Under the pieces are notes generated by a model that made no database searches, had not been told where the DNA came from, and saw nothing but the letters and a program-made list of their open reading frames with translations. DNA of 61,890 bases from Candidatus Kerfeldbacteria bacterium (GTDB lineage: Bacteria > Patescibacteriota > Patescibacteriia > SBBC01 > CAIJZX01), in the NCBI GenBank assembly GCA_903825245.1, contig CAIJZX010000029.1, positions 1-61,890 on the forward strand. The letters are read 5' to 3'. This document shows, piece by piece, positions 1 through 26,497 of this stretch (its first letter is position 1; each line of letters starts with the position of its first letter). The position numbers and the translations under genes are program-made.

Positions 1-2298
1 AAACTTGCCGGCTTCAATCTTCGAGACGTTGAGGAATTGGTTGATCAGCCGGATCATACGCTGCGATTCGCCGAGCAAATCGACGAGTATTTTTTGGTGT
101 TCCGGTTTAATTTTACCGAAATCCCCTTGTGTCATCATCGACAAGTATCCCATGATGCCCGTCATCGGCGTCCGCAATTGGTGCGAGGCGATTGATACGA
201 ATTCCGATTTCGCCCGGTCGAGTTCTTGCAAGTGTTTGTTGGCGTCTTCCAGCTGATCGTTCGTTTTGCGAATTCTATCGAAGAGCGTGATGTTTCGAGC
301 GACAACGCCGAGTTCATCAGCCATCGATTGCAAGGTTTCGATTTCGCGCTGGGAAATTTGCGCTCGCTCGCGTTTCGCCCCGACCTCAATCACGCCGATA
401 ACTTTTTGCTCGGACACAATCGGCACGAGAATCATGGTCCGAATGCCGATCGCCTTCTGCATCGCATTGGCAATGAGCTTCGGAATCGGCGGCGACAACA
501 CCTCTGCCATACTGTTTGAAAATCGAACTTCACCAGTATTGATGACATCATATGCTAGCGTATGTTGGCTTTGATTCGTTAGGTCTGTTGTGTACGTCGA
601 AACTTGCTTCGGTAACAATTTCATCGCTTTCGTTGTCAACGGTGTTTCGGTTACGGCGCGCGCGCGAAGCGTTTTCCCGTCGTCATCGAGTAAAATAAGA
701 ATCGCGCCTAAGAAACCGAGCTCCGTCGCAACAGCGTTAGCAATATTTTGTACGACCTTACCAAAATCAAGCGTACGGGTAATGTCCTTCGTAATCGTTT
801 GCAGGGTTTGCAACGACACGTTCCGATCGCGCAATTCTTTTGTTGCGTCGTCTACTTTTACTTTTAGATCTTCGCTGAACTCGCGGACTTCTTCGTACAA
901 GCTCGCTTTTTGAATCGCTGACCCGATTTGTGGCGCGAGGACATCAATCAACTGCGTATCCTCGTTCGAGAACGAATCGCCGGAGAGTTTTGGTCCAAGC
1001 GTTAAGACGGCAACGAGATGATTTTCCGAGAAAATTGGCGCAACCAGGGCAACACCAAGACGTTCAAACTCTGCTTTCGAAGCAATTTCCTTATCGCGAT
1101 CCGGTCCTTCCGGGGTATCTTCAATTTTTCGTTCTAACGCTTCGAGTAATGATAGGTGTTGGTGGTCGCGGACGAAACGAATAAGCGGGCTATCATTTGC
1201 AATAACAATATCTGTCTTAGGATAAACGTCCTCAGCGGTCACCGAAAACTTCGTCGTTTTGCCTTGTTTATCTTGGGTGCGCAGTAATATCAAGCTATTT
1301 TTTACTTTGAGACCTTGCGTCAGTTCTTTTTCAAGATCATCGAGCAGTTTTTGGAGATCGAGTTCTATTGAAATAATTGAACTTAGGTTTTGTAGTAGTT
1401 TTGTATATTCAATTTTTGCTTGAAAAAAGACCTTATCGGTAGTTTTTGACAATAATCTTTTTAACGGGTCTAAGCCAGTAACAACAAGTATGGCAATTAC
1501 TATTGAAATTCCAGTTCTAGCGCTAGAAGAGCCATTAAAAAATTGTGCAGAGAGTAATAATACAGAAATAAACAACAATGCTACTAATGTCACTAGAATA
1601 CCGTATATCAGTGACCTAGTAAGGACAACCCTAATATCGAGTAGCCTATGCCGTATGATCGCATAAAAAGTGAAGCCTACCCAAATTAATGAGCTTGGAC
1701 TATCAAGGAAGGCGAGATTTGGAAAACCGATTGATGTAAACAATACGCCAGCAGTTATAGCCAGAAGACCATATCCAACCATCCCGAATAAAGTGTATCG
1801 TAGTTGCTCTCTTAAAACCCCATGCGAATTTTTATAATATCTATTCGTAATAAGTACCACATAAATGAATGTAAAAAGTTGGGCTACCAACATCACATCG
1901 AACCATGGTCCGGACACACCCTTAAATACGATTGGGGATATTCTATGGATATTAGTTAAAAATCCTGGCAAAAATGTAATAAGAAAAACAAAAAGGCCAA
2001 GAATAATAAATGGTACTATTTTCTTTAGTGAAACAGATCTGCCTTCTACAAAGTACTGAACCCATATAATTCCTGCACAAGTCAAAGACACTCCAATTCC
2101 CCATATTGGTGGGAGTATTTGGGTCAATCCAGTCAATCGTAATAGAATATTTAAAACTCCAATCAAGGAAGACAATATGGCAATAACAAAAAACCATTGA
2201 TTAGAGATGTTTCTACTATTTCTCTTCAACGCAAGTATTCCAAGAAAAGCATTCGAAACCGCAGCTATCGACATTATTATTAATGCTGCTTGGTACAT
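1..2298 (-). CDS. Sensor histidine kinase: N-terminal 7TM (HisKA_7TM-like) domain, extra TM helices, two GAF-like domains, HisKA; 3' end runs off the window
   Basis: Not in the ORF track because it is truncated. Hand translation from ATG at 2298 (MYQAALIIMSIAAVSNAFLG...) is open to base 1. It contains hydrophobic helices ending FYAIIRHRLLDI, GAF-like segments (LVAPIFSENHLVAVLTLGPK; ILVPIVSEQKVIGVIEVG) and the H-box ELDRAKSEFVSIASHQLRTP. Confidence 0.9.
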   Translation of the reverse strand, partial: MYQAALIIMSIAAVSNAFLGILALKRNSRNISNQWFFVIAILSSLIGVLNILLRLTGLTQILPPIWGIGVSLTCAGIIWVQYFVEGRSVSLKKIVPFIILGLFVFLITFLPGFLTNIHRISPIVFKGVSGPWFDVMLVAQLFTFIYVVLITNRYYKNSHGVLREQLRYTLFGMVGYGLLAITAGVLFTSIGFPNLAFLDSPSSLIWVGFTFYAIIRHRLLDIRVVLTRSLIYGILVTLVALLFISVLLLSAQFFNGSSSARTGISIVIAILVVTGLDPLKRLLSKTTDKVFFQAKIEYTKLLQNLSSIISIELDLQKLLDDLEKELTQGLKVKNSLILLRTQDKQGKTTKFSVTAEDVYPKTDIVIANDSPLIRFVRDHQHLSLLEALERKIEDTPEGPDRDKEIASKAEFERLGVALVAPIFSENHLVAVLTLGPKLSGDSFSNEDTQLIDVLAPQIGSAIQKASLYEEVREFSEDLKVKVDDATKELRDRNVSLQTLQTITKDITRTLDFGKVVQNIANAVATELGFLGAILILLDDDGKTLRARAVTETPLTTKAMKLLPKQVSTYTTDLTNQSQHTLAYDVINTGEVRFSNSMAEVLSPPIPKLIANAMQKAIGIRTMILVPIVSEQKVIGVIEVGAKRERAQISQREIETLQSMADELGVVARNITLFDRIRKTNDQLEDANKHLQELDRAKSEFVSIASHQLRTPMTGIMGYLSMMTQGDFGKIKPEHQKILVDLLGESQRMIRLINQFLNVSKIEAGKF

Positions 2299-7286: not shown

Positions 7287-8546
7287 TTACTGTTCTATGC
7301 CAAGAAATGTGTAAATAATTGAGCCAACCTTTACCTTGTTTGCCTCGGGCACTTTGCTATCCGCGGGTTCGCGCATTTCACCAACAACCTGGTTAAACAG
7401 AATCCGGGCTTTATTGGTTCGCAAATCTTGGATAACTACTTTCTTCGGTCCCAACCCATTATTTGTGGTAAAGATGGTAACCGGGACAAACCGGGATGTT
7501 GGGTCAAAGTGCTGCACCTCACCAGCAATGGTGATCTGACGATCACTGTTATGGGTAAAATTATGATACCACTCGCCGTTATTCTGGTAATAGTACCCCG
7601 CTAAATTGCGATCCAAGACGTCTGGATAATACTTAAGGATTGGGGTGATATTGGTAAAGGCAGAAGTCATCAGGTTAAAACGGACATATTGTGCGCCATA
7701 ATTATCGCTCGCCATATCACGCTTAAGAAAAATGACGCTTTGACCATCTGGTTCAAGCCATTGATACGTATATGTTAGCCCGGCATCACCGGTTGGCGAC
7801 TGAAAGTTCCGTTGAAGTTCTGTAAATGTCCCCGTTGATAAATCAACCATTCCTAAAACTTGCAAATTGAGTTCCTCTTGTGAATTAATTTGGATCAATA
7901 CCTTGGCATCAGACTGAAAATCTAAAACATCAATTTTGAGTGGAGCAACGTTACCAACGCCGAAGTCTTTTTGTTGAAGAGTTTTTGTTGAAAAAGTTTT
8001 TGTATCAAAAATGCGAAAGGAAAATACCATCGGACAAGGACCCTCTTTAACGACCGCACTACACGTAAGGTCAGTAGTAACTACATACGTACCGTCGGGA
8101 CTTTGTCGCGTTTTGATAAAAGGATTAGCGTCTGTTATTTGCTTGTCTGTCACCCGCACTGAGATAACCTTGCCCTGTTTATCGAGCGTCGTAATCGTGC
8201 CTATCGGCGCCGGCGTTATTGCAACAGAACTCTCTTTCTCTAAAAAATCAGTAATCGTCAATCCAGAAGGGGTAAACTTTGCTTGATCGGAATACATAAC
8301 AAGGTTTGAATCCGTAAATATTTTTCTTGGAGCTCCAGTCATTCCGTCTACACGATAGATGGTATTCCGACCGCGGGCATTTCCGGCAAGATCAAAGCCA
8401 GTGACCGATAAAGCCGAATAGTATGCCGAAAAATGAGTTTGGTTATTATTGATAATATTACCTAAATACCAGAAAGCTGTGCTACAAATAATGAAGAATA
8501 TGACGCTGACAACCGTTATATATGATGTACGTAATGTTCGATACAT
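7287..8546 (-). CDS. Membrane-anchored extracytoplasmic beta-propeller-like protein
   Basis: One N-terminal TM helix, then beta-rich repeats with SPDG/EPDG/DPTS turns (TolB/PD40-like). Confidence 0.6.
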   Translation of the reverse strand: MYRTLRTSYITVVSVIFFIICSTAFWYLGNIINNNQTHFSAYYSALSVTGFDLAGNARGRNTIYRVDGMTGAPRKIFTDSNLVMYSDQAKFTPSGLTITDFLEKESSVAITPAPIGTITTLDKQGKVISVRVTDKQITDANPFIKTRQSPDGTYVVTTDLTCSAVVKEGPCPMVFSFRIFDTKTFSTKTLQQKDFGVGNVAPLKIDVLDFQSDAKVLIQINSQEELNLQVLGMVDLSTGTFTELQRNFQSPTGDAGLTYTYQWLEPDGQSVIFLKRDMASDNYGAQYVRFNLMTSAFTNITPILKYYPDVLDRNLAGYYYQNNGEWYHNFTHNSDRQITIAGEVQHFDPTSRFVPVTIFTTNNGLGPKKVVIQDLRTNKARILFNQVVGEMREPADSKVPEANKVKVGSIIYTFLGIEQ

Positions 8547-8618
8547 AGTATAGAAAAATAAAAAGTGGGGTACTAAGAGTAAGAATACTCTGTTCCCCCA
8601 TGATTGAGAAGGTGCGAA

Positions 8619-9341
8619 TTAGAACTGTTTCATGTATGTCGGCTTGTAGGCCGTGTAGCCGCCCAGCTGATTCCACGCGAACGAGTGACGAGCAATCACG
8701 AAGGTTCCGTTGCGATCGACATTATTCGAGTCGATCAAATCCAGACCCCAACCGAGATTAGCCGCCACAATGGCACTATGTTCGCCAGGACTCAGATGCT
8801 GTATAACCCACCCAGTTTTCGCCTGGGTGATATCACAAGGTGTCATGTAACCGCTGTAGTCGTAACCACCACCAGGCAGCACCAGATGCCAGCCGTTTCC
8901 GATACCGTACGACGAACGGTACAGAACCAGATCGACGAAGAACTTGCAGTAGCCGCCGAGGTGACCACCACCATACGTCCCGTCGATACTTCCACGGTTA
9001 ACTGTCCCGCCAATGTAGCTGGTCATGACATTCAATGCAGTGTTATCACTGCGCACGTAGTCCCAGTCGCCGAGATGGATGCCCTTGTAGACGATAGTCG
9101 ACGACCCGGTCCGGTAGACGTTCAACGCATAGCATGCTTCACTAAACACGTTGTTACTCCAGTCCACACCGGTATACGTGGCATCCGGCGTTGCCACCGG
9201 CTTCTGGACGTGACTCGTGTCCGTAACTGCCTGGACGTCCGTTGCCGTCGGCTCAGTCATCTTGTTCACTTTCGAACAAGCGCCGAGAGACATGGCCAGC
9301 ATCATCATTGCTACGAGGCACTTCACCTGATTCGCCTTCAT
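8619..9341 (-). CDS. Lipoprotein with CHAP/NlpC-P60-like cysteine hydrolase domain
   Basis: Signal peptide with lipobox LGAC; Cys...His...acidic pattern GGYCKFFV / GEHSAIV / LIDSN; SD AAGGAG upstream. Confidence 0.7.
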   Translation of the reverse strand: MKANQVKCLVAMMMLAMSLGACSKVNKMTEPTATDVQAVTDTSHVQKPVATPDATYTGVDWSNNVFSEACYALNVYRTGSSTIVYKGIHLGDWDYVRSDNTALNVMTSYIGGTVNRGSIDGTYGGGHLGGYCKFFVDLVLYRSSYGIGNGWHLVLPGGGYDYSGYMTPCDITQAKTGWVIQHLSPGEHSAIVAANLGWGLDLIDSNNVDRNGTFVIARHSFAWNQLGGYTAYKPTYMKQF

Positions 9342-9749
9342 TGTGTACTCCTTGGCTTCTCCACACAGGGTGTGGGAGCGTCTGTACTTCGGGATTTTCG
9401 GCCTACGGCACTGCGTGGAGTGAATTGTCTTTCACCCCCTTTCGCGTACGTACTTTGTGAAGGATGCTCTGTGTAAAGCTTACTTAGGCACTACGTGTTT
9501 GGGCACCTCCTTTTCGATTTGTAAAGAACGATGAACCGTTGGCTTGCACAGGTTTGCGATCGGTATTTCCAGTGTTCACCGGAAATTCGACAACACAAAA
9601 CCGGCCTGATGCAGGATGTTTTCCTACACCGCCATCGTTTGCCTCACCTTAGCGAAGAACAAAACGGTGGCACGACCTTCTCCCCAAGAGGAGAAGAGCA
9701 AGCCACCGATTCGTACTTCTAGGGTACTCTTTTTTTGGGGAAAGTCAAG
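9220..9749. repeat. Direct repeat copy 1: promoter, long leader and first ~40 codons of the lipoprotein
   Basis: Aligns by eye with 11533-12092. Near-identical over 9220-9355 and 9529-9715, diverged between. Confidence 0.95.
9529..9715 (-). ncRNA. Candidate structured leader RNA (multibranch core), copy 1
   Basis: Closing stem GAATCGGTGGCTTGC / GCAAGCCAACGGTTC encloses four hairpins. It begins just after a TTGACT-N16-TACCCT promoter (9721-9748). Confidence 0.65.
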
Positions 9750-9773
9750 GGGATAAACGGCATTGAAATGCAA

Positions 9774-10913
9774 CTATTTCACTATCGCTGCGCGAATGAT
9801 ATTATTTACTGAATCGACATATTGGTTCTGTACTTTCATCATAGAGGAAATCGTTCTTGTAGAAATCCAGCCGACCTCTTGAAGTGGCGGAATATCAAGG
9901 AGAAGCTTTGTGCCGTCGGGTGACCAGACTGATTGCCCAAGATTTATATTCTCGGTGAATGGCGTGGCGGACAAAGTCGTTTCGTGTTGTGTTACTAAGT
10001 CAAGTCGAGTAAATACTCCCGCCTCTTGGCCAGAAATTTTCTTTACATAGATAACCGATTTACCATCAGGGCTCGGCAAACTCACTGGGCCATCTGACCA
10101 CGTGGTAATAGGATAATCAGTTGTAGTTGCCGTTTCAAGATGGTAGCTGTGTAGCCCTTGACCATCGAGCCAAAGCAGAATTGATTGTTGACCGCTATCT
10201 GGTGTTGTGGAAATAGCACTGTTCATGTAGATAGCACTGGAAATATTTTCTTTTATTTCCGAAGCTTTCCCGTTATCCGATCTATACCACGTAACACCTT
10301 CGGTCATATTTCCAATGACATATACTAAATGCTGCAAGTCATCGCTTGACCAAATAAAAGTAAATCCGTTTTTTGATGCAGGTAATGTTGTGGCAACATC
10401 AAGCACTGTTTGAACCGTTTTACTGGAAATACTCAGTTCCACGACAGATGTGATAACTCCTTCCGTTCCATCACTCGTCGAACTATTCGGATCAATAAGT
10501 TCAACAACTAAACTATTTTCATTGGCAGTCCAAAATACACTTCGTATTTGTTGTGATGCTGGAGTTGTATACAGTAACGTCAGTGTTTGTTCTGGATACT
10601 GCAACAGATACAGGGAACGATTATCTGTTGTGAGAATCGCTTCTTGTTTTTTTGAAGGCGCAAGATATTGAAGCGTTTTCACGAAGGACAACTTGCTCGC
10701 CGGAATACGTGTATATGCAACCCCGGTAGCAGCATTAATACGGTAATCGTTAGTCAAGAGGTCGCAATTACAAAAAGTGTTCAGCGTCGAAATAGTAGCT
10801 TGGCTACCCTTCGGTTTAGGTTTGTTTTGTAAATTCACATAGAAACATCCTACACCCACGATGAGCATGATAATAACCACAGCTGCAAATATTTTAGTCG
10901 GATAATTTTTCAT
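9774..10913 (-). CDS. Membrane-anchored TolB/PD40-like beta-propeller protein
   Basis: Start moved to ATG 10913 (MKNYPTK), 6 nt after a TATACT -10 box. TM helix, then WTANE/WSSDD/PSPDG/WSPDG repeats. Confidence 0.7.
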   Translation of the reverse strand: MKNYPTKIFAAVVIIMLIVGVGCFYVNLQNKPKPKGSQATISTLNTFCNCDLLTNDYRINAATGVAYTRIPASKLSFVKTLQYLAPSKKQEAILTTDNRSLYLLQYPEQTLTLLYTTPASQQIRSVFWTANENSLVVELIDPNSSTSDGTEGVITSVVELSISSKTVQTVLDVATTLPASKNGFTFIWSSDDLQHLVYVIGNMTEGVTWYRSDNGKASEIKENISSAIYMNSAISTTPDSGQQSILLWLDGQGLHSYHLETATTTDYPITTWSDGPVSLPSPDGKSVIYVKKISGQEAGVFTRLDLVTQHETTLSATPFTENINLGQSVWSPDGTKLLLDIPPLQEVGWISTRTISSMMKVQNQYVDSVNNIIRAAIVK

Positions 10914-10951
10914 GTATAGAGTATAATAAAATTCTACAATATTGTCGAAAG

Positions 10952-10988
10952 AAAAAGTGCTGGGTGAAGCTTGAGCATCACCCAGCAT
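10952..10988 (-). terminator. Intrinsic terminator after lipoprotein 2
   Basis: Minus strand TGCTGGGTGA-tgctcaagct-TCACCCAGCA followed by CTTTTT. Confidence 0.75.
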
Positions 10989-11000
10989 GAACGAGGAGGC

Positions 11001-11654
11001 CTAACCGCCAATGACCTGGTAAATAGTGTAACTGCCGCCAGAAGTCGATTCGAATTTGGCGTAAGTCACATAGTGGATTTCCAAGCCACCGAGAAAGTCC
11101 ATATTGCAGTCAATGACGTAAACGCCATTTCCGTCATTGGACCAGATGATCATGGTGTGGGGCCAACTTCCCCAACTGGCCTGGACGATCTGTCCACGCT
11201 GAGCGCCGTTGATCGGCATACCAGCAGGACCATAGCCAGGAATGTTAACATACTGGCCAGCTGCCCATCTCGACCACGACGTACTCGCGGGTAGGGAGGC
11301 GACGTTACGAGAAGCAACGAGAACAACGTGCTGTGCCCAGGTCTTGCAATTGTATCCGGACGGACGAGAAAGCTTGTTGAGTCCGCCGCCAAGCGCAACC
11401 ATTTCGGTATTTGCTTCCTGGCAAATCGCTTCGTTTCTCTGCGCCTGGGTAAGGCTCCGCCACCACTGCTGATTCGCAACAGTACCGCCGAAATTACCTG
11501 CCCCCGGCTTCTGAACGCCAGAAACGCTGGAATCCGTAACTGCCTGGACGTCCGTTGCCGTCGGCTCAGTCATCTTGTTCACTTTCGAACAAGCGCCGAG
11601 AGACATGGCCAGCATCATCATTGCTACGAGACACTTCACCTGATTCGCCTTCAT
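11001..11654 (-). CDS. Lipoprotein with CHAP/NlpC-P60-like cysteine hydrolase domain (paralog with divergent C-terminus)
   Basis: Start at ATG 11654; first ~40 aa identical to 8619..9341. Motifs GYNCKTWA / WPHTMII / VIDCN. Confidence 0.7.
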   Translation of the reverse strand: MKANQVKCLVAMMMLAMSLGACSKVNKMTEPTATDVQAVTDSSVSGVQKPGAGNFGGTVANQQWWRSLTQAQRNEAICQEANTEMVALGGGLNKLSRPSGYNCKTWAQHVVLVASRNVASLPASTSWSRWAAGQYVNIPGYGPAGMPINGAQRGQIVQASWGSWPHTMIIWSNDGNGVYVIDCNMDFLGGLEIHYVTYAKFESTSGGSYTIYQVIGG

Positions 11655-12092
11655 TGTGTACTCCTTGGGCTTCTCCACGCGGTGCGTGGGAGCGTCTGTA
11701 CTGCAGGATTTGCAGCCAATCGGCACTGCGTGGAGTGAATACTTATTCACCTCCCTTCGCGTGCGTATAACGTGAAGGATGCTATGGGATTAAGCATTTT
11801 CAGGTACTACGTGGTTGAACACCTCCTTATGATTGTCACGTAAATCTTTCGCCACGTGGCACTGTAATGAGCGATGAACCGTTGGCTTGCACAGGTTTGC
11901 GATCGGTATTTCCAGTGTTCACCGGAAATTCGACAACACAAAACCGGCCTGATGCAGGATGTTTTCCTACACCGCCATCGTTTGCTTCACCTTGGGTAAA
12001 ATCAAAACGGTGGCACGACCTTCTCCACAGAGGAAGAAGAGCAAGCCACCGATTCGTAACTACAGGATACTCCTTCGGAGGAAAATGTCAAG
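11533..12092. repeat. Direct repeat copy 2
   Basis: Matches 9220-9749; promoter TTGACA-N16-TATCCT at 12064-12091 (minus strand). Confidence 0.95.
11872..12058 (-). ncRNA. Candidate structured leader RNA, copy 2
   Basis: Same fold as 9529-9715; differences are limited to two hairpin tips and preserve pairing. Confidence 0.65.
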
Positions 12093-12120
12093 AACAAACA
12101 GAAGAAAAACGCGTCGCTGA

Positions 12121-12303
12121 TTAGGCTACGCGTTGGCCGGAGAATTCCGGAACGAGCTCGAGGATACTGACGTCTGGTGGTGTCGGCATCAGTCGCACGA
12201 CCTCACCGCCAGATTCGCCTGACACATGCTCGTAGACAAGAACTGTTGTTGCTTTGGTCATCTTGTGGACGAGCGTACTGTTTTCGTACCACACGCACCA
12301 CAT
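12121..12303 (-). CDS. Small hypothetical protein
   Basis: 60-aa ORF with GGAGG 5 nt before the ATG, directly after murF. Confidence 0.4.
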   Translation of the reverse strand: MWCVWYENSTLVHKMTKATTVLVYEHVSGESGGEVVRLMPTPPDVSILELVPEFSGQRVA

Positions 12304-12321
12304 GGCGCCTCCGACGGTCAG

Positions 12322-13587
12322 TTAGTGTCCATGGACAAGGAACAGTATATCGCGTTCTGGATTATCGAGTAAGATGGCAACTGCTTTTTCCAATTGGGAA
12401 GCGAAACGCGAGCCTTTCAACAACACGGCCACGCCCGGCGCCAGCATCGGCTGCACCACGGCTGCCGCCGCTTCAGCGTTTGTCACATTCGTGATTCGAT
12501 CGGTCGGCATACCCGATGCCGCGGCGGCTTTCCCGATCCGATCGGCTAACGGCCCAACGGTCACTAGGTAGTCAATGCGAAGTTGCGCGACTTCGTGTCC
12601 GATCCGGTCGTGCCATTCAGCAGCCATCGCACCCAGTTCGGACATTTGGCCGAGGACCGCGATACGTTGTCCAGGAATCGCCAATTCATGTAAAGAATGT
12701 ACGGCGGCCATAACCGCTTCGGGTGAGGCATTATACGTATCGTCAATAATGAGCGACCGATCCCGGCCGTGGAATAACCGCATCCGACCCGGCGGCGGCG
12801 TATAGGCGCTTAATCGTTGGATAATGGACATCACGTCGTCACCCAAAGCGCGGCCAACAGCAATCGCCGCCAGCAGCGGATAGACTTGGTGACGGCCGAG
12901 TACACCGGGCAAAGCGATCGGGATCGTACTTCCGTCGACCGATATTTTAACGACCATGCCATCAGGTAGTGCATGATCATCATTCGTGAGGCTATATGAT
13001 ACCGCGCGAATCATCGCTGTCGATGACCATCCATACGATATTACCTTGACCAACGGCGTCATCGGCATATCAGCAATCCGAGTATCATCAATATTGATTA
13101 CCGCAAATCCTTGGGGCGGTAGCCGCCGAACGACAAGCGATTCTTCTTCAACCACCGTCGCTTCATCACCAAAAAATTCTAAATGCTCCGGCGCGGCTGA
13201 GGTTAAAACGCCAATCGTCGGTCGCAGGAGGCTGAGCAACGGATCGAGATCGCCAGGATGGTCGGCCGCGAGCTCAAGTACGAGCACTGGCGGATATCGT
13301 CGATTCGATATTGCCTGCCAGACGCCGCGCCACAACAATGACAACCATTGACTCATTCCTTTTGGCGCGCCACCGGCACTCATAATAGTGGCCGGAACAC
13401 CAATCTCGGCATTAAAATTTCCTTCGGTTTTTCGGACGCTTCGAGCGACGCCGGCTAGTCCAGCAGCAATCGCATCTTTCGTCGCCGTCTTTCCCACTGA
13501 TCCGGCCACGGCTATCACGATCGGATGTGCTCGATATAGGATGATCCGAGCGAGAAACCGAAAGACGGATCGTACGAACCGTTTCAT
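12322..13587 (-). CDS. murF: UDP-N-acetylmuramoyl-tripeptide--D-Ala-D-Ala ligase
   Basis: AVAGSVGKT, NFNAEIGVP, IIDDTYNASP, VLGQMSELG, LLKGSR; dcw context. Confidence 0.88.
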   Translation of the reverse strand: MKRFVRSVFRFLARIILYRAHPIVIAVAGSVGKTATKDAIAAGLAGVARSVRKTEGNFNAEIGVPATIMSAGGAPKGMSQWLSLLWRGVWQAISNRRYPPVLVLELAADHPGDLDPLLSLLRPTIGVLTSAAPEHLEFFGDEATVVEEESLVVRRLPPQGFAVINIDDTRIADMPMTPLVKVISYGWSSTAMIRAVSYSLTNDDHALPDGMVVKISVDGSTIPIALPGVLGRHQVYPLLAAIAVGRALGDDVMSIIQRLSAYTPPPGRMRLFHGRDRSLIIDDTYNASPEAVMAAVHSLHELAIPGQRIAVLGQMSELGAMAAEWHDRIGHEVAQLRIDYLVTVGPLADRIGKAAAASGMPTDRITNVTNAEAAAAVVQPMLAPGVAVLLKGSRFASQLEKAVAILLDNPERDILFLVHGH

Positions 13588-15335
13588 TATTTCGTTGTTA
13601 TTGGACGAGTCGGCTGAATATGATCATATAACATTAAAAATTTCGCGAGCGAGCCAAACAGCGGTGCCGCCGAGCTTTCAGCAAATTGCACATCACGCGG
13701 ATGCAGAAGTTGCACTACCATCACAAATTGTGGATCCTCAACCGGGGCAAATCCGGCGAAAGTGCCGTTCGTCGCACCGACCATGTACTTACCGGTGGTG
13801 AGATCTGGAATTTGTGCGGTACCTGTTTTTCCGGCCACGTAGTAACCGGGTACAGCCGCTTTTTTCCCATGACCATTCTCAACAACATCCACCAACATTC
13901 CCGAAATGGTAGCAGCTGTTTCTGCCGAAATAACTTGGCGCACAACCTTCGGCTGTGTTACTACTTCTGTGCCGTCCGGTTTCTGTACTTTCGCCACAAT
14001 ATACGGTTGCATAAGCTTACCGCCATTCGCCATCACACCGTAGGCTGCCGCCAATTGTAATGGCGTGACCGTTAGCCCTTGACCGAACGCTCCAGTATCA
14101 GCATAAATATCTTTCTTGCTGGCCACGCCGCTAATGTTCCCGCTCGATTCATCGAGATCAATATTTGTCGGCGATCCGAAACCAAAAGCTTTCACGTATT
14201 GCGAAAATTTATCAGCACCGATTTGACTCATGGCATAAATTGCTCCAGTGTTCAGCGACTCATCAAGAACTTGTTTCATGGTTTGTACGCCATGCGCTTT
14301 TTCATCGGAGTTCTTAATGGTGAAGCTGCCAACTTTTACTTCGCCGGTATCCGTGTAGGTCGAGTCCGGCGTCACTTTACCCTCATTGAGCGCGGCGGAC
14401 ATAGTGAAGGCTTTGAACACCGATCCTGGTTCATATGGAACTTGGGTAGCGGCATTAGCAAACACTTTGGCGTCGGTCACTTGATTGAAATTGTTCGGAT
14501 CGTAATTCGGCGCACCGCACATCGCAATGATCGCCCCCGTCTTCGGATCCATAATCACCAGACTCCCACCATCGGCGCCGTGCTTTTGGACGGCATCATC
14601 TAACTGTTGGCAGGCTTCGAACTGAACCGTGCGATCAATCGTTAATAGTAAATTCGATCCGTCGATCGCTGGTTGCCACGATTGTGTCGCCGTAGCGATC
14701 AGCTGACCGGAGGCATCCTTTTGCGCATTGATATATCCTTGCTGACCAGCCAATTCTTTTTGGTACCAGCCTTCTAAACCATACCGGCCGACTTTAAGGT
14801 TTTGCGCGTTGTATCCGACGAACCCTAAAATTTGCGAGCCAAGGTTTTTATCCGGGTAATAGCGCGTCGGTTCATCACTGAACGCCACCCCGGTGATTTT
14901 CAGCGCCGCAATCGCTGTCTGCTGATCATCGGTCATGCTGTGCTGAATCGGTTCATAGAGATCATTCGCCTTGCTCAACCGCTTCAGCAATTCGTCTTTG
15001 GGCATCGTCACCAATGGCGCTAGCGCTTCCGATGCTGCGATCGGATCAGTAATTTGTTTCGGTACGACGTAGAGCAAGTGCAGGGTTTTATTTGTGGCTA
15101 ATGGATAGACGCCCGTCGATGATTGCGGATCAGAAACGAGAATCTGCCCCCGCGTCGGCAGAAGCTTCTCATTTAATTGATGGATATCCGCAGCCAGGGC
15201 TGTATAAAAACCGTGCTGCAGTACTTGCAGAGTAAATAATCGTAAGCCAAGCAATAAGGCAAAGACCACAAAAAAACCAATCACGATGCTCTCACGATTG
15301 ATCCGTCGATTTCCCGTTCCCCGGCGTTGGGCCAT
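13587..15335 (-). CDS. ftsI: Class B penicillin-binding protein (FtsI/PBP2-type transpeptidase)
   Basis: N-terminal TM, PTRGQI, YEPGSVFK (SxxK), ESLN (SxN), AGKTGTAQ. Confidence 0.9.
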   Translation of the reverse strand: MAQRRGTGNRRINRESIVIGFFVVFALLLGLRLFTLQVLQHGFYTALAADIHQLNEKLLPTRGQILVSDPQSSTGVYPLATNKTLHLLYVVPKQITDPIAASEALAPLVTMPKDELLKRLSKANDLYEPIQHSMTDDQQTAIAALKITGVAFSDEPTRYYPDKNLGSQILGFVGYNAQNLKVGRYGLEGWYQKELAGQQGYINAQKDASGQLIATATQSWQPAIDGSNLLLTIDRTVQFEACQQLDDAVQKHGADGGSLVIMDPKTGAIIAMCGAPNYDPNNFNQVTDAKVFANAATQVPYEPGSVFKAFTMSAALNEGKVTPDSTYTDTGEVKVGSFTIKNSDEKAHGVQTMKQVLDESLNTGAIYAMSQIGADKFSQYVKAFGFGSPTNIDLDESSGNISGVASKKDIYADTGAFGQGLTVTPLQLAAAYGVMANGGKLMQPYIVAKVQKPDGTEVVTQPKVVRQVISAETAATISGMLVDVVENGHGKKAAVPGYYVAGKTGTAQIPDLTTGKYMVGATNGTFAGFAPVEDPQFVMVVQLLHPRDVQFAESSAAPLFGSLAKFLMLYDHIQPTRPITTK

Positions 15336-23999: not shown

Positions 24000-26497
24000 T
24001 ATCGTGAGGTTTCCGCTACCGGCGCCGCGGGCACTGTGGCTGGCGAACCAAGTTGCGTCCGCTCTAAGATATCCGCCTCGACAAAGCTTCGCTCTTTGCC
24101 ATACCGAAGACGAGAATATTGTTTGATGGCTTCGGCAATCTCCGGCGTTCCTGGCGACAGTGGATAGGTAGCGATATGAAACGGCGGCGCGGCGGTATTG
24201 TCAATCAATAACCGCAAATACGCCGTATACTTCTTTTGGTTGACCATGTCGTACGCGGTAAATCGCGGCGCGAATTGTTTCTCTAATATTTCCGCATCAT
24301 CAACGCCAATACGAAATGCGACCATCGTTCCCACGTTTCCTAAGATTGCATCACGTACCTTGGTATCATTATTCTGAGCCAATTGGCTCATGTATTGGTG
24401 AGCCATAGTCAAATTGAGTTTGTACTTTCTCGCCTCCGAGAGAATGGTGGCAATCGAATCGGTAATGAAGTTTTGGAATTCGTCAACATACAGATAAAAG
24501 TCTTGACGTTGATCTTCTGGAATATCGGCGCGGGACAAAGCCGCCATTTGCAGTTTGGAAACAATAATCAACCCTAACAGAAAGGCATTCACTTCGCCAA
24601 CCTGTCCCTTTGATAAATTGACCAACAAAATCTTTTTTTCGTCCATAATCTGCCGGAAATTAAAGGCCGACTTCGATTGACCGATAATGTTTCGCATCAT
24701 AGCGTTTTCCACGAATCGCCCAACCTTGGAAATCAGATAGCCAAGCATTTCTGATTTATGAAAATCGCTCGTTTTGGCCATTTCTTTTTCCCAAAACGCT
24801 CGCACCACCGGATCTTTCACTTTGGTCAATTTATACGCTTGAAAAGCCTTGTCGGTAAAGATGCGCGGAATATCGGCGATCGTACCCGGCGACTCCTCAT
24901 CTTCCATCAACGTCAGCATCGCGTTACGCATGTTGTGCTCAAACATCGGACCAATCATCTCCGGCGGAAAGAGTTTCATGAAAATAGCCACCATCTCCTG
25001 CGCCGCCGCATCACGTTCTTGCGGCGTATGTGCTTCCATCATGTTCAAACCCATCGGCCGTTCCAGATCAGCAGGATTGAAAAGAATCACATCGTGCATC
25101 CGTACCGCCGGGATATGCTCCATAATGTCTTTGATTAAATCTCCGTGCGGATCAACGACGCATACGCCTTCACCGCGAGCTATGTCCTGAATCGCCATGT
25201 TAGCCAGCAAGATCGATTTACCCACACCGGTAGTACCAACGACATAGACGTGACGTCGCCGATCACCGGGCTTGATTCGCACAACTAAGTCTTGTCCACG
25301 ATACTCGTTGTGTCCTAAGGTAATTCCTTCTGTCGGCAACGCTACCGGTGCCGCAGCTTGTTGGGCAGCTAACCAGGAAATATTCGGCGTATCCATCGTC
25401 GAAAGTGGGAAATGATAGAGACTATTTATCTCTTCACTATTGAGGATCATCGACGTCCGATGGAAATTCCGCCAAATCGTGTCCCAAATCACTCGTCCGG
25501 AACTTCGCACCCGACGACGTTTAAACGTCGTACCAGACTCCGGTGCTTGAAATTGCGTAAAGGCATTGACGACGTTTTCTAAATGAACCCGGGCATTTCG
25601 TTCATTCGGCGAGCAGGTAACGATACGTATATTCACTTCAAAGGCTGGCTTACCCGCTTTCTCCTCCAACGATTTTATTAACTCCTGTTCTTGCGGTGTA
25701 ATATTTGGCATCTTACTCATCGCCGGCTCTTGGTTGGTTTTGAGTGACGACGTCAGCACCGAAAAAATTCCGCCAGCCGAGGTACTTCGTCGATCTTTAC
25801 CTTCTTGCATCAATTTCGCTTTTGTCATTCCCGCTTTTTCCCAACCACGTCGTTTGGTTCGAATACAGATTTGGATAACCGCGCCTTCACCGGCTTGCAC
25901 TTTCCCGAGCGCCATCGTCATGGCGTTCAATGGATCGCTGTCGAGCTTCTTATACGTCCGAATCGAATACATTGACGGTTTGGTTAATTTCAGTTCCGTA
26001 CCCTGAACAAAACTATTCGGACTGAAAATATTGTAGTCTTCTATTTCTTCGATTTGCGCCTTCGGATACTGGGCCAGAATTTGTGACTCAAGAAGTTGCC
26101 GCAAAGCGCGTGGCGCGACAACATAGAAAAAGATTTGCCCATTTGTGGCCACCATTTCAAATGACATGTGGTCGTGGCGGCCATACCAAAACTCAAACCA
26201 CAATTCGCGCACCTTACCGTTACCCGGACGATAATGTACTCCGCCCAAGGTAATGAAAAGCGTTTCGTACGTGGCTAATGTTTCCCGCCAATCACGTTGC
26301 GATTGTCCCGGTTCGGCAACTTCTTTCGGCAGACTGACCCGCAGATGCACATAGGCATGTAACTGATCGACTCGACTATGCCGCTGTAACCACCAGCGCA
26401 AGAGATATACCGTCAAAAATAAAAACACTACAATCCCAGTAATGATACCGGGCACCATCCAGTTTATCGCGGTGAAAGGATTACTCAATGAATACAT
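23999..26497 (-). CDS. VirD4/TraD/HerA-like ATPase fused to an N-terminal membrane-anchored domain
   Basis: RRRHVYVVGTTGVGKS, VDPHGD, LYVDEFQNF, LSEARKY, AHQY; start placed at ATG 26497. Confidence 0.85.
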   Translation of the reverse strand: MYSLSNPFTAINWMVPGIITGIVVFLFLTVYLLRWWLQRHSRVDQLHAYVHLRVSLPKEVAEPGQSQRDWRETLATYETLFITLGGVHYRPGNGKVRELWFEFWYGRHDHMSFEMVATNGQIFFYVVAPRALRQLLESQILAQYPKAQIEEIEDYNIFSPNSFVQGTELKLTKPSMYSIRTYKKLDSDPLNAMTMALGKVQAGEGAVIQICIRTKRRGWEKAGMTKAKLMQEGKDRRSTSAGGIFSVLTSSLKTNQEPAMSKMPNITPQEQELIKSLEEKAGKPAFEVNIRIVTCSPNERNARVHLENVVNAFTQFQAPESGTTFKRRRVRSSGRVIWDTIWRNFHRTSMILNSEEINSLYHFPLSTMDTPNISWLAAQQAAAPVALPTEGITLGHNEYRGQDLVVRIKPGDRRRHVYVVGTTGVGKSILLANMAIQDIARGEGVCVVDPHGDLIKDIMEHIPAVRMHDVILFNPADLERPMGLNMMEAHTPQERDAAAQEMVAIFMKLFPPEMIGPMFEHNMRNAMLTLMEDEESPGTIADIPRIFTDKAFQAYKLTKVKDPVVRAFWEKEMAKTSDFHKSEMLGYLISKVGRFVENAMMRNIIGQSKSAFNFRQIMDEKKILLVNLSKGQVGEVNAFLLGLIIVSKLQMAALSRADIPEDQRQDFYLYVDEFQNFITDSIATILSEARKYKLNLTMAHQYMSQLAQNNDTKVRDAILGNVGTMVAFRIGVDDAEILEKQFAPRFTAYDMVNQKKYTAYLRLLIDNTAAPPFHIATYPLSPGTPEIAEAIKQYSRLRYGKERSFVEADILERTQLGSPATVPAAPVAETSR

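Follow-up and report, generated by a model that had tools for sequence, protein, structure and literature searches.

In classical trp-type attenuators the leader of the message forms mutually exclusive hairpins, designated 1:2, 2:3 and 3:4. Other bacterial leaders act on message stability. For the stabilising Shine-Dalgarno sequence (STAB-SD) of cry3A in Bacillus thuringiensis, the available part of one report describes a 30S subunit that blocks RNase J1 (PMC4113751), and the accessible portion of another describes leaders of Bacillus subtilis, those of aprE, ermC and others, in which a stem-loop at the 5' end and the binding of ribosomes stabilise the transcript (PMC3997798). Association with cell-wall peptidase genes, such as nlpC of Corynebacterium glutamicum, is documented in the excerpted text of a third for the cyclic di-AMP (c-di-AMP) riboswitch ydaO/kimA (PMC9960051). 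Here a leader RNA of a member of the candidate phyla radiation (CPR) is compared with these systems. It precedes two lipoprotein genes on the minus strand of contig CAIJZX010000029.1 of a Candidatus Kerfeldbacteria bacterium (assembly GCA_903825245.1), a stretch of 61,890 nucleotides referred to below as the window, with start codons at 9341 (copy A) and 11654 (copy B). The leader belongs to a genuine, uncatalogued family of structured 5' leader RNAs heading secreted-hydrolase genes in one Kerfeldbacteria-like family of the CPR, and it probably controls message lifetime or translation efficiency.

The genome that contains the window (1.30 Mb, 42 contigs) has four copies of the leader in total. 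Copy C (contig C3, 1124-1502) shows 77% identity along the full leader and lies ahead of an M23 peptidase that has another signal peptide, its conservation starting at the -35 box and ending at the ATG; the fourth (contig C31, ~26178-26385) is a short form of about 207 nt before a secreted protein of 158 amino acids that falls into no family. Beyond this genome, homologues were reached only by way of covariance models, protein-anchored loci and motif scans, BLASTN with the 211-nt core giving no match in 60 relatives. A covariance model of the core yielded two weak matches (16.5 and 15.2 bits), which on reading were judged to be true diverged leaders and which precede a protein A homologue and a small lipoprotein; model R1, built from the three close copies, was over-fitted, giving 15-17 bits on true homologues, and was rejected. 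A model restricted to the 5'-terminal stem-loop (SL1) detected 18 copies in seven of the 12 genomes examined of one family, that whose relatives bear the title Candidatus Kerfeldbacteria, and nothing credible in nine genomes of two sister families of the order. The leader was not found at E<=1e-4 in 147 genomes from the class's other families, and the orphan Shine-Dalgarno (SD) pattern described below is confined to the family among the 401 class genomes scanned. A pattern scan of the genome collection returned 11 stretches, five judged true leaders and six judged chance, the true ones lying only in records titled Candidatus Kerfeldbacteria and in metagenome-assembled genomes (MAGs) with the same loci; a metagenome scan returned six, a single one of which, a partial copy (cut fragment L041), was judged true. 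Within the family, protein-anchored loci and the motif scan place the leader in most genera, with one to four detected copies per leader-bearing genome, and tandem units are frequent (three in ~5 kb in genome G005, three in ~4 kb in G010). Three MAG records titled 'uncultured Gammaproteobacteria' (L031, L037 and L039) carry the leader loci of G011, G005 and G010, and their titles look wrong. The comparison that follows rests on 19 related sequences of this one family, namely 18 complete leaders and the metagenome fragment, and in parts on reading by eye; an alignment with reverse-strand matches mixed in (A6) was excluded from the counts.

That the family is uncatalogued agrees with the initial annotation of the locus, which had been made from the sequence and had not recognised a known riboswitch. 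A covariance-model search of Rfam 15 with window positions 8000-13500 at E<=10 gave chance-level matches only (the best, mir-290, at 23 bits against a gathering threshold of 51), and a search with seven additional loci at E<=1 returned a single weak match, unrelated and located outside the leaders. The same annotation had named a mere recent duplication as an outcome that would count against it; since homologues with covariation exist, that objection fails. No paper on riboswitches in Kerfeldbacteria was found in a search of literature listings, and among the top-ranked matches on structured RNA in Patescibacteria or CPR bacteria none dealt with the leader element.

The helix shared by the whole family is SL1, formed by strand a at the 5' end and strand b, and not the 15-bp closing stem that is prominent in copies A and B. 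In the 19-sequence alignment (A7), 90.9% of the 285 cells of SL1 pair, compared with 30-52% after a shift of the partners by 1-3 columns; two-sided changes occur in five pairs (pair 10:105 is GC in ten sequences and AU in eight, pair 7:108 AU in 17 and GC in two), the covariation score was reached in none of 500 shuffles, and SL1 lies within the minimum-energy fold of most members. Strand b has an alternative partner, the downstream segment c, and the helices a:b and b:c are mutually exclusive, as expected of the conserved alternative helices of a metabolite riboswitch; in the window b:c is the hairpin GCCACCGUUU/AAACGAUGGC. Among the 11 GGUGAG-bearing members, no more than two of the 8-10 foreign b strands bind a member's c as strongly as its own b (none in four members, one in six and two in one), and the members' own b:c duplexes have energies of -12.1 to -21.6 kcal/mol, compared with per-member means of -9.6 to -15.7 kcal/mol for foreign b strands. 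Several b columns show three or four types of b:c pair (for instance U-A in three, A-U in four, G-C in three and G-U in one), and in six of the 19 members no more than three of 200 shuffles of b were as stable. A gapless search for c was abandoned as too noisy (z 2.1-4.0 over about 100 offsets). In copies A to C strand a can also pair over a long range with a segment d, which together with b:c gives a five-way junction; junction and SL1 fold lie within 0-1 kcal/mol of each other in A and C, and the junction is better by 5 kcal/mol in B. None of 200 shuffles was as stable as the a:d duplex in A and in B, compared with 20 of 200 in C, 4 of 200 in leader G006_1 and 9 of 200 in G005_2; significant in A and B and not family-wide, the closing stem a:d is therefore a local elaboration of the window's own genome.

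Across the family the leaders measure 146-418 nt and their 5' domains 128-230 nt, hairpins being gained and lost between members. A TTGAC box stands at a near-fixed distance 5' of the conserved segment in 18 of the 19 rows (the row of G010_3 is mis-anchored and has no distance), the leader starts about 31-33 nt 3' of this box, and in six leaders counted by eye the conserved RNA, with SL1, starts 7-10 nt 3' of the -10 box, the RNA start itself being a prediction. Strand a is nearly invariant (GAAYCRGUGGCUUGG) and strand b variable, and in each of the 19 sequences b is succeeded by a U-run, part of which pairs with the A-rich beginning of a, the whole hairpin being 50-100 nt long. Variable hairpins follow downstream, and in 11 of the 19 leaders the GGUGAG motif and then segment c; a G/U-rich block (GSCYKGUUUNGUGUUGY) recurs across genera and is the 5' arm of a further hairpin in the longer forms. 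Seventeen of the 19 leaders have the motif YUUACAAC or one very like it (G010_3 and the cut fragment L041 have no anchor), and an SD-like sequence follows it after 1-6 nt in 13 aligned leaders and after longer inserts in B, G002_1, G005_2 and G005_3. Between this orphan SD and the end of the leader lie some 50-160 nt of variable structure, closed in many members, as read by eye, by a GC hairpin and then the true SD and ATG. The domain content between SL1 and UUACAAC thus differs widely among members, which is not the pattern of riboswitch aptamers in general, and given this variable inner architecture a leader composed of short recognition motifs and hairpins fits better than a classical aptamer.

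The orphan SD is present in 15 of the 18 complete leaders, 51-167 nt before the ATG, with 8-12 nt complementary to the 16S rRNA tail (the 3' end in the window's genome reads GGAUCACCUCCUUUCU), compared with 6-8 nt for the true SDs; leader G005_2 has two such sites. No start codon was seen at initiation distance 3' of it in the eight leaders read by eye, and no conserved reading frame was found 3' of it among the members. An SD-like sequence of the 5' untranslated region with no start codon placed at initiation distance, in a host that possesses RNase J, is the constellation described for STAB-SD elements: the genome encodes RNase J (TIGR00649, 517 bits, above the cut-off) and RNase Y (603 bits), and RNase E/G was not found in it, which is a Bacillus-type decay machinery. 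A hairpin between a CCUU-like stretch before UUACAAC and the orphan SD was considered and rejected, as it is without covariation (-4.4 kcal/mol for own and -4.7 kcal/mol for cross-paired strands).

In the window, leader A occupies 9342-9716 and leader B 11655-12059 on the minus strand, and the two upstream regions can be aligned from the TTGAC box through the ATG into the coding sequence (CDS). Much of what had been annotated initially holds at this level. The near-identical core of about 187 nt (9529-9715 and 11872-12058, 187 nt) has 179 of 188 aligned columns identical (95%), with the differences concentrated, as claimed, in two hairpin tips of the pairwise alignment. RNAalifold on copies A, B and C reproduces the described fold, in which a closing stem of 14 pairs, interrupted by one unpaired position, encloses four hairpins, which include GCCACCGUUU/AAACGAUGGC, GUGUAGGA/UCCUGCAU and AUUUCCGGUG/CACUGGAAAU, with four pairs retained via two-sided changes among these three close copies; the 15-bp closing stem is present in A and B but is specific to this genome. 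RNAfold gives minimum-energy z-scores of -4.6 (A) and -5.4 (B), none of 100 dinucleotide shuffles being equally stable. The 3' part of the leader has 154 of 217 columns identical (71%), and the statement that this diverged part keeps its stems is confirmed by the stem 5' of the true SD, which covaries (one pair changes from AU to GC, another from UA to AU). The sigma-70 promoters had been placed about 380-410 nt upstream of the ATG; the boxes exist on direct reading, but the distances were slightly off, being ~402-407 nt (A) and ~432-437 nt (B) from the -35 box to the ATG and ~375 nt (A) and ~405 nt (B) from the predicted RNA start. A simple consensus promoter scan called the promoter of B and missed that of A, with six calls in the region, not above the 5.1 in shuffles.

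The proposed tie between a conserved non-coding leader and secreted hydrolase genes is likewise borne out, whereas the observation that the core is better conserved than the enzyme domains needs a different reading. It is true for A against B, yet the first 123 nt of the CDS, coding for signal peptide, lipobox and some 20 residues more, are conserved equally well (121 of 123 identical, 98%), and the remaining CDS are unrelated (53% in a gapped global alignment). The A/B pair alone therefore shows duplication or conversion of a module and not selection; the real evidence of conservation is copy C, since its leader is 76-83% identical and its CDS unrelated. Positions 9219-9341 and 11532-11654 are near-identical and the adjoining 3' half of the leader is only 71% identical, an identity mosaic that suggests gene conversion or module exchange between units A and B. 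The features of the two units, all on the minus strand, are as follows.

Copy A:
9743-9748, minus: -35 box TTGACT (9748-9743), read from the sequence, at a near-fixed spacing in the family.
9721-9726, minus: -10 box TACCCT (9726-9721), with TANNNT at the equal place in other leaders.
~9714-9716, minus: predicted RNA start, from the promoter boxes.
9661-9712, minus: SL1, with strand a at 9712-9698, the variable hairpin P2, and strand b with the U-run at 9675-9661; 56 bits with SL1 covariance model R2.
9643-9648, minus: loop motif GGUGAG, with 6 nt of complementarity to the 16S tail.
9631-9641, minus: segment c, the AAACGAUGGC arm, alternative partner of b.
9608-9630, minus: hairpin P4, GUGUAGGA/UCCUGCAU, nine pairs, three with pairing-preserving one-sided changes in copy C.
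9549-9607, minus: G/U-rich block, which recurs across genera, and long hairpin P5, including AUUUCCGGUG/CACUGGAAAU.
9533-9547, minus: segment d, 3' strand of the closing stem and partner of a, duplex of -23.3 kcal/mol.
9519-9524, minus: UUACAA motif, family-wide.
9504-9513, minus: orphan SD AAAGGAGGUG, 162 nt before the ATG, with 10 nt of complementarity to the 16S 3' tail of this genome.
9408-9451, minus: hairpin with a second SD-like stretch, GGGGGUGAA/UUCACUCC, from the comparative fold.
9356-9379, minus: GC hairpin CCCACAC/GUGUGG just 5' of the true SD, two pairs with two-sided changes.
9348-9353, minus: true SD AAGGAG, read from the sequence.
8619-9341, minus: lipoprotein gene A, 240 amino acids, lipobox LGAC, probable NlpC/P60-CHAP-like fold.

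Copy B:
12086-12091, minus: -35 box TTGACA (12091-12086), with -10 box TATCCT at 12069-12064, from the scan and direct reading.
12004-12055, minus: SL1, with a at 12055-12041 and b at 12018-12004; 56.7 bits with model R2.
11974-11991, minus: GGUGAA motif and segment c, from the b:c cross-pairing analysis.
11876-11890, minus: segment d, 3' strand of the closing stem, from RNAalifold and shuffles.
11829-11867, minus: UUACAG motif and an insert of 27 nt (gap columns) with its own hairpin, 33 nt from motif to orphan SD; leader G002_1 has an insertion at the same place.
11820-11828, minus: orphan SD AAGGAGGUG, 165 nt before the ATG.
11661-11666, minus: true SD, read from the sequence.
11001-11654, minus: lipoprotein gene B, 217 amino acids, with the signal peptide of A and another C-terminal domain, for which there is an NlpC/P60-like lead.
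9774-10988, minus: gene for a low-GC membrane-anchored protein 3' of gene B, probably co-transcribed with it.

It is tentatively proposed that the leader is a cis-acting 5' stabiliser of the mRNA and a ribosome-loading element with a two-state hairpin. Each unit would be transcribed from its own promoter of sigma-70 type, with an RNA predicted to start 0-3 nt before SL1, and the leader would then act in cis after transcription in the manner of the stabilisers and ribosome loaders of Bacillus. RNase J would be kept from entering at the 5' end by the terminal hairpin and by a 30S subunit resting on the orphan SD, and long-lived, well-expressed mRNAs for exported enzymes would result. A two-state element may be overlaid on this arrangement, in which b pairs with a or with the downstream c; since b pairs either way and compensatory evolution has preserved the two helices, refolding of the 5' end should be possible, for example once a is bound, processed or captured, and in copies A to C the capture of a by its long-range partner d would give the five-way junction. 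This explanation is rated the likeliest because the two universal features of the leader are the two classical determinants of such stabilisers and the enzyme context fits.

Several points weigh against it. A stabiliser needs neither an invariant 15-nt 5' strand nor a covarying b:c helix nor the UUACAAC and GGUGAG motifs, and these features, left unexplained, indicate specific recognition, so that a sensing switch keeps substantial weight. The orphan SD is predicted to be no more accessible than the leader as a whole (mean unpaired probability 0.34, leader average 0.36) and is missing from three of the 18 complete leaders; in G005_3 and in the short G008 leader the SD that follows the UUACA motif is the real one. 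These two cases, in a short leader (G008, L016 ~1375-1490) and in the shortest family member (G005_3, L037 3262-3437), suggest that in the long leaders the orphan SD was once a true site or arose as a duplicate of one. The RNA start is taken from the promoter boxes only, the shuffle-based significance of the helices is overstated because the sequences are few and related, and the pair counts of b:c are biased toward pairing because its register was picked per sequence by energy.

The strongest competitor is a sensing switch, that is, a riboswitch or a leader to which a protein or an RNA binds, in which a factor acting on a or SL1 would set b:a against b:c and thereby read-through or decay; either SL1 together with the U-run, or a second hairpin that precedes the G/U-rich block, would serve as the terminator. 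We regard this as possible, on the unlikely side. It would account for two mutually exclusive helices that are both supported by covariation, for a strand a far more conserved than its partner b, for the U-run after b in 19 of 19 sequences and for a gene set that looks like a regulon, tandem arrays included; when a is blocked in silico, the cost is 10-18 kcal/mol for 16 of the 17 members listed (2 kcal/mol in G002_2), and with a blocked b pairs with c in several of them. However, the inner architecture is not conserved as in known aptamers, segment c lies beyond the U-run of SL1, so that b:c would be unable to prevent termination there, a simple terminator scan calls nothing at SL1, and a terminator c:e is not established, the tested segments overlapping. 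Nor is a coupling of SL1 state to SD accessibility predicted, the true SD being about equally accessible in both states (0.42 and 0.37), and no trans partner of a was found in the genome, the sole 15-nt match lying in a long minus-strand open reading frame (ORF), which we take from one motif to be rpoC, and being judged chance. For a metabolite switch, a c-di-AMP-type ligand, for which probing with cyclic dinucleotides had been suggested at the outset, is unlikely: ydaO/kimA (RF00379) has no match in the whole genome or the window, and the DAC domain (PF02457) has none in this genome, estimated 100% complete, in a search whose control was positive in 11 of 14 reference genomes. Rated only marginally lower is the full scenario of a CPR-specific switch, in which a metabolite, protein or RNA would bind a, flip b from a to c and so switch on the secreted lytic enzymes, for instance upon contact with the host cell on which these episymbionts are thought to live.

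Translational control of CsrA type, with a CsrA homologue binding GGA-containing SD-like sites (the orphan SD, the further SD-like ones and the true SD), is improbable. Each leader has several GGA motifs, and csrA is present in the window's genome (88.7 bits), in all seven leader-bearing genomes searched, and missing from G008, the one complete family genome with the short leader only; but it is also present in six of seven genomes of the sister family f2 and in four family genomes in which no leader was found (17 of 21 genomes of the order in all), the conserved extension GGUGAUC fits the 16S tail and not the CsrA consensus, and the hairpin that would present the site is the one rejected above for want of covariation. 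The homologue itself (65 amino acids, contig C14, 210-407, L073) adjoins a uvrA-like gene, with no flagellar gene within 1.9 kb. A translated leader is still less probable, in which a short upstream ORF (uORF) with GGUGAG as its SD would couple ribosome occupancy of c to the choice between a:b and b:c. An ATG, GTG or TTG does stand 4-11 nt past GGUGAG in nine of 11 members, 7 nt past the motif an ORF of three codons stands in copies A and B (ATG GCG GTG TAG, 9624-9635 and 11967-11978, minus strand), and the frame xUU-ACA-ACx has an upstream start codon in 17 of 17 leaders compared with six and ten of 17 in the other frames; against this, the uORFs run from 3 to more than 65 codons with ends that are not conserved, their peptides are not conserved beyond the constraint of the nucleotide motifs, their frame relative to the G/U block varies, all three frames stay open over similar mean lengths, and copies A and C differ by one-base indels. 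The ATG of the three-codon ORF in A and B causes the sole A-C mismatch in b:c. Least probable of all is that the RNA has no function, the conservation reflecting a duplicated cassette of promoter and signal peptide or a DNA operator at the transcription start. The 98% identity of the signal-peptide coding parts of A and B would agree with it, as would a palindrome in the first 18 nt (GAACCA-N6-TGGTTC) seen by eye in some genera; the palindrome is missing, however, in copies A to C and several others, copy C and members from other genera keep the leader with unrelated CDS and signal peptides, and compensatory changes on the transcribed strand preserve the helices.

The genes served agree in being exported. 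All 17 translated downstream products begin, as judged by eye, with a start resembling a signal peptide, a lipobox or a twin-arginine signal; Pfam assigned three to M23 and one each to CHAP/NlpC-P60, C39-like and M10, and gave nothing above threshold for the other 11, proteins A and B included. These two have language-model neighbours in NlpC/P60 and CHAP clusters (0.90-0.91), which serve as leads only, and phmmer against the PDB gave no match for either. The products of L007, L015, L021, L037, L039 and L003 share the N-terminal motif (T/S)WGxxKxxY(R) behind the signal peptide, regardless of the C-terminal domain; it may be a common targeting or anchoring module. In L066 (G002 contig C29, leader 1501-1561, minus strand) an in-frame TAG about 28 codons into the gene is followed by the motif as SWGxIKxLYR; the gene may be a pseudogene, or the TAG may stem from a sequencing error or from recoding. 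A low-GC membrane-anchored gene follows each hydrolase gene on the same strand (9774-10988 in the window, ~1-330 in L003, ~1-440 in L007), with ~0.39-0.43 GC against 0.55 for hydrolase gene and leader, and a weak PD40/TolB-like match. Directly upstream of unit B lie genes for a Mur ligase and a penicillin-binding-protein transpeptidase (12322-15335, minus strand), which places the hydrolase units beside genes of cell-wall synthesis.

Almost nothing is known of gene regulation in the ultra-small CPR bacteria (Patescibacteria), and here one RNA element marks a co-regulated set of exported enzymes cutting peptidoglycan or protein, that is, a defined regulon, and supplies RNA parts that can be tested, namely the 5' hairpin, the alternative helix and the orphan SD. 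It is a compact natural case of two classical mRNA-stabilising devices combined with a two-state fold. Should the leader be a sensor, it would represent a new class of riboregulator, the first described for these bacteria, and a handle on the control of cell-wall attack or remodelling; should it be a stabiliser, 5' stabilisers of Bacillus type would be in use far beyond the Firmicutes.

With attenuators of the trp type the Kerfeldbacteria leader shares three successive segments, the middle one pairing either way, and U-rich tracts after hairpins; it differs in having no conserved leader peptide, in a competing helix that lies beyond the first U-run and in a 3:4 terminator that is not established. 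As far as the excerpted text on ydaO/kimA goes, that riboswitch is likewise a structured leader of more than 100 nt before NlpC/P60-type and other cell-wall hydrolase genes (PMC9960051), an association seen here among the 17 downstream proteins; the present leader, however, has no RF00379 match, its genome has no DAC domain, and its architecture is not conserved in the way of an aptamer. The likeness to leaders of aprE type, judged from the accessible portion of that report, lies in a stem-loop at the 5' end with a strong ribosome-binding site, a secreted enzyme gene, and decay by RNases J and Y without RNase E (PMC3997798); the Kerfeldbacteria leaders add an invariant 5' strand, motifs and an alternative helix, none of them needed for end protection. 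To the cry3A STAB-SD, in the part of the work available, the orphan SD corresponds as an SD-like sequence far upstream in a long leader, complementary to 16S rRNA and non-initiating, in a host with RNase J (PMC4113751). The two have no sequence relationship, and compared with cry3A the Kerfeldbacteria leader, whose stabilising effect is predicted, is larger and structured, begins with a two-state hairpin and is repeated across a set of genes.

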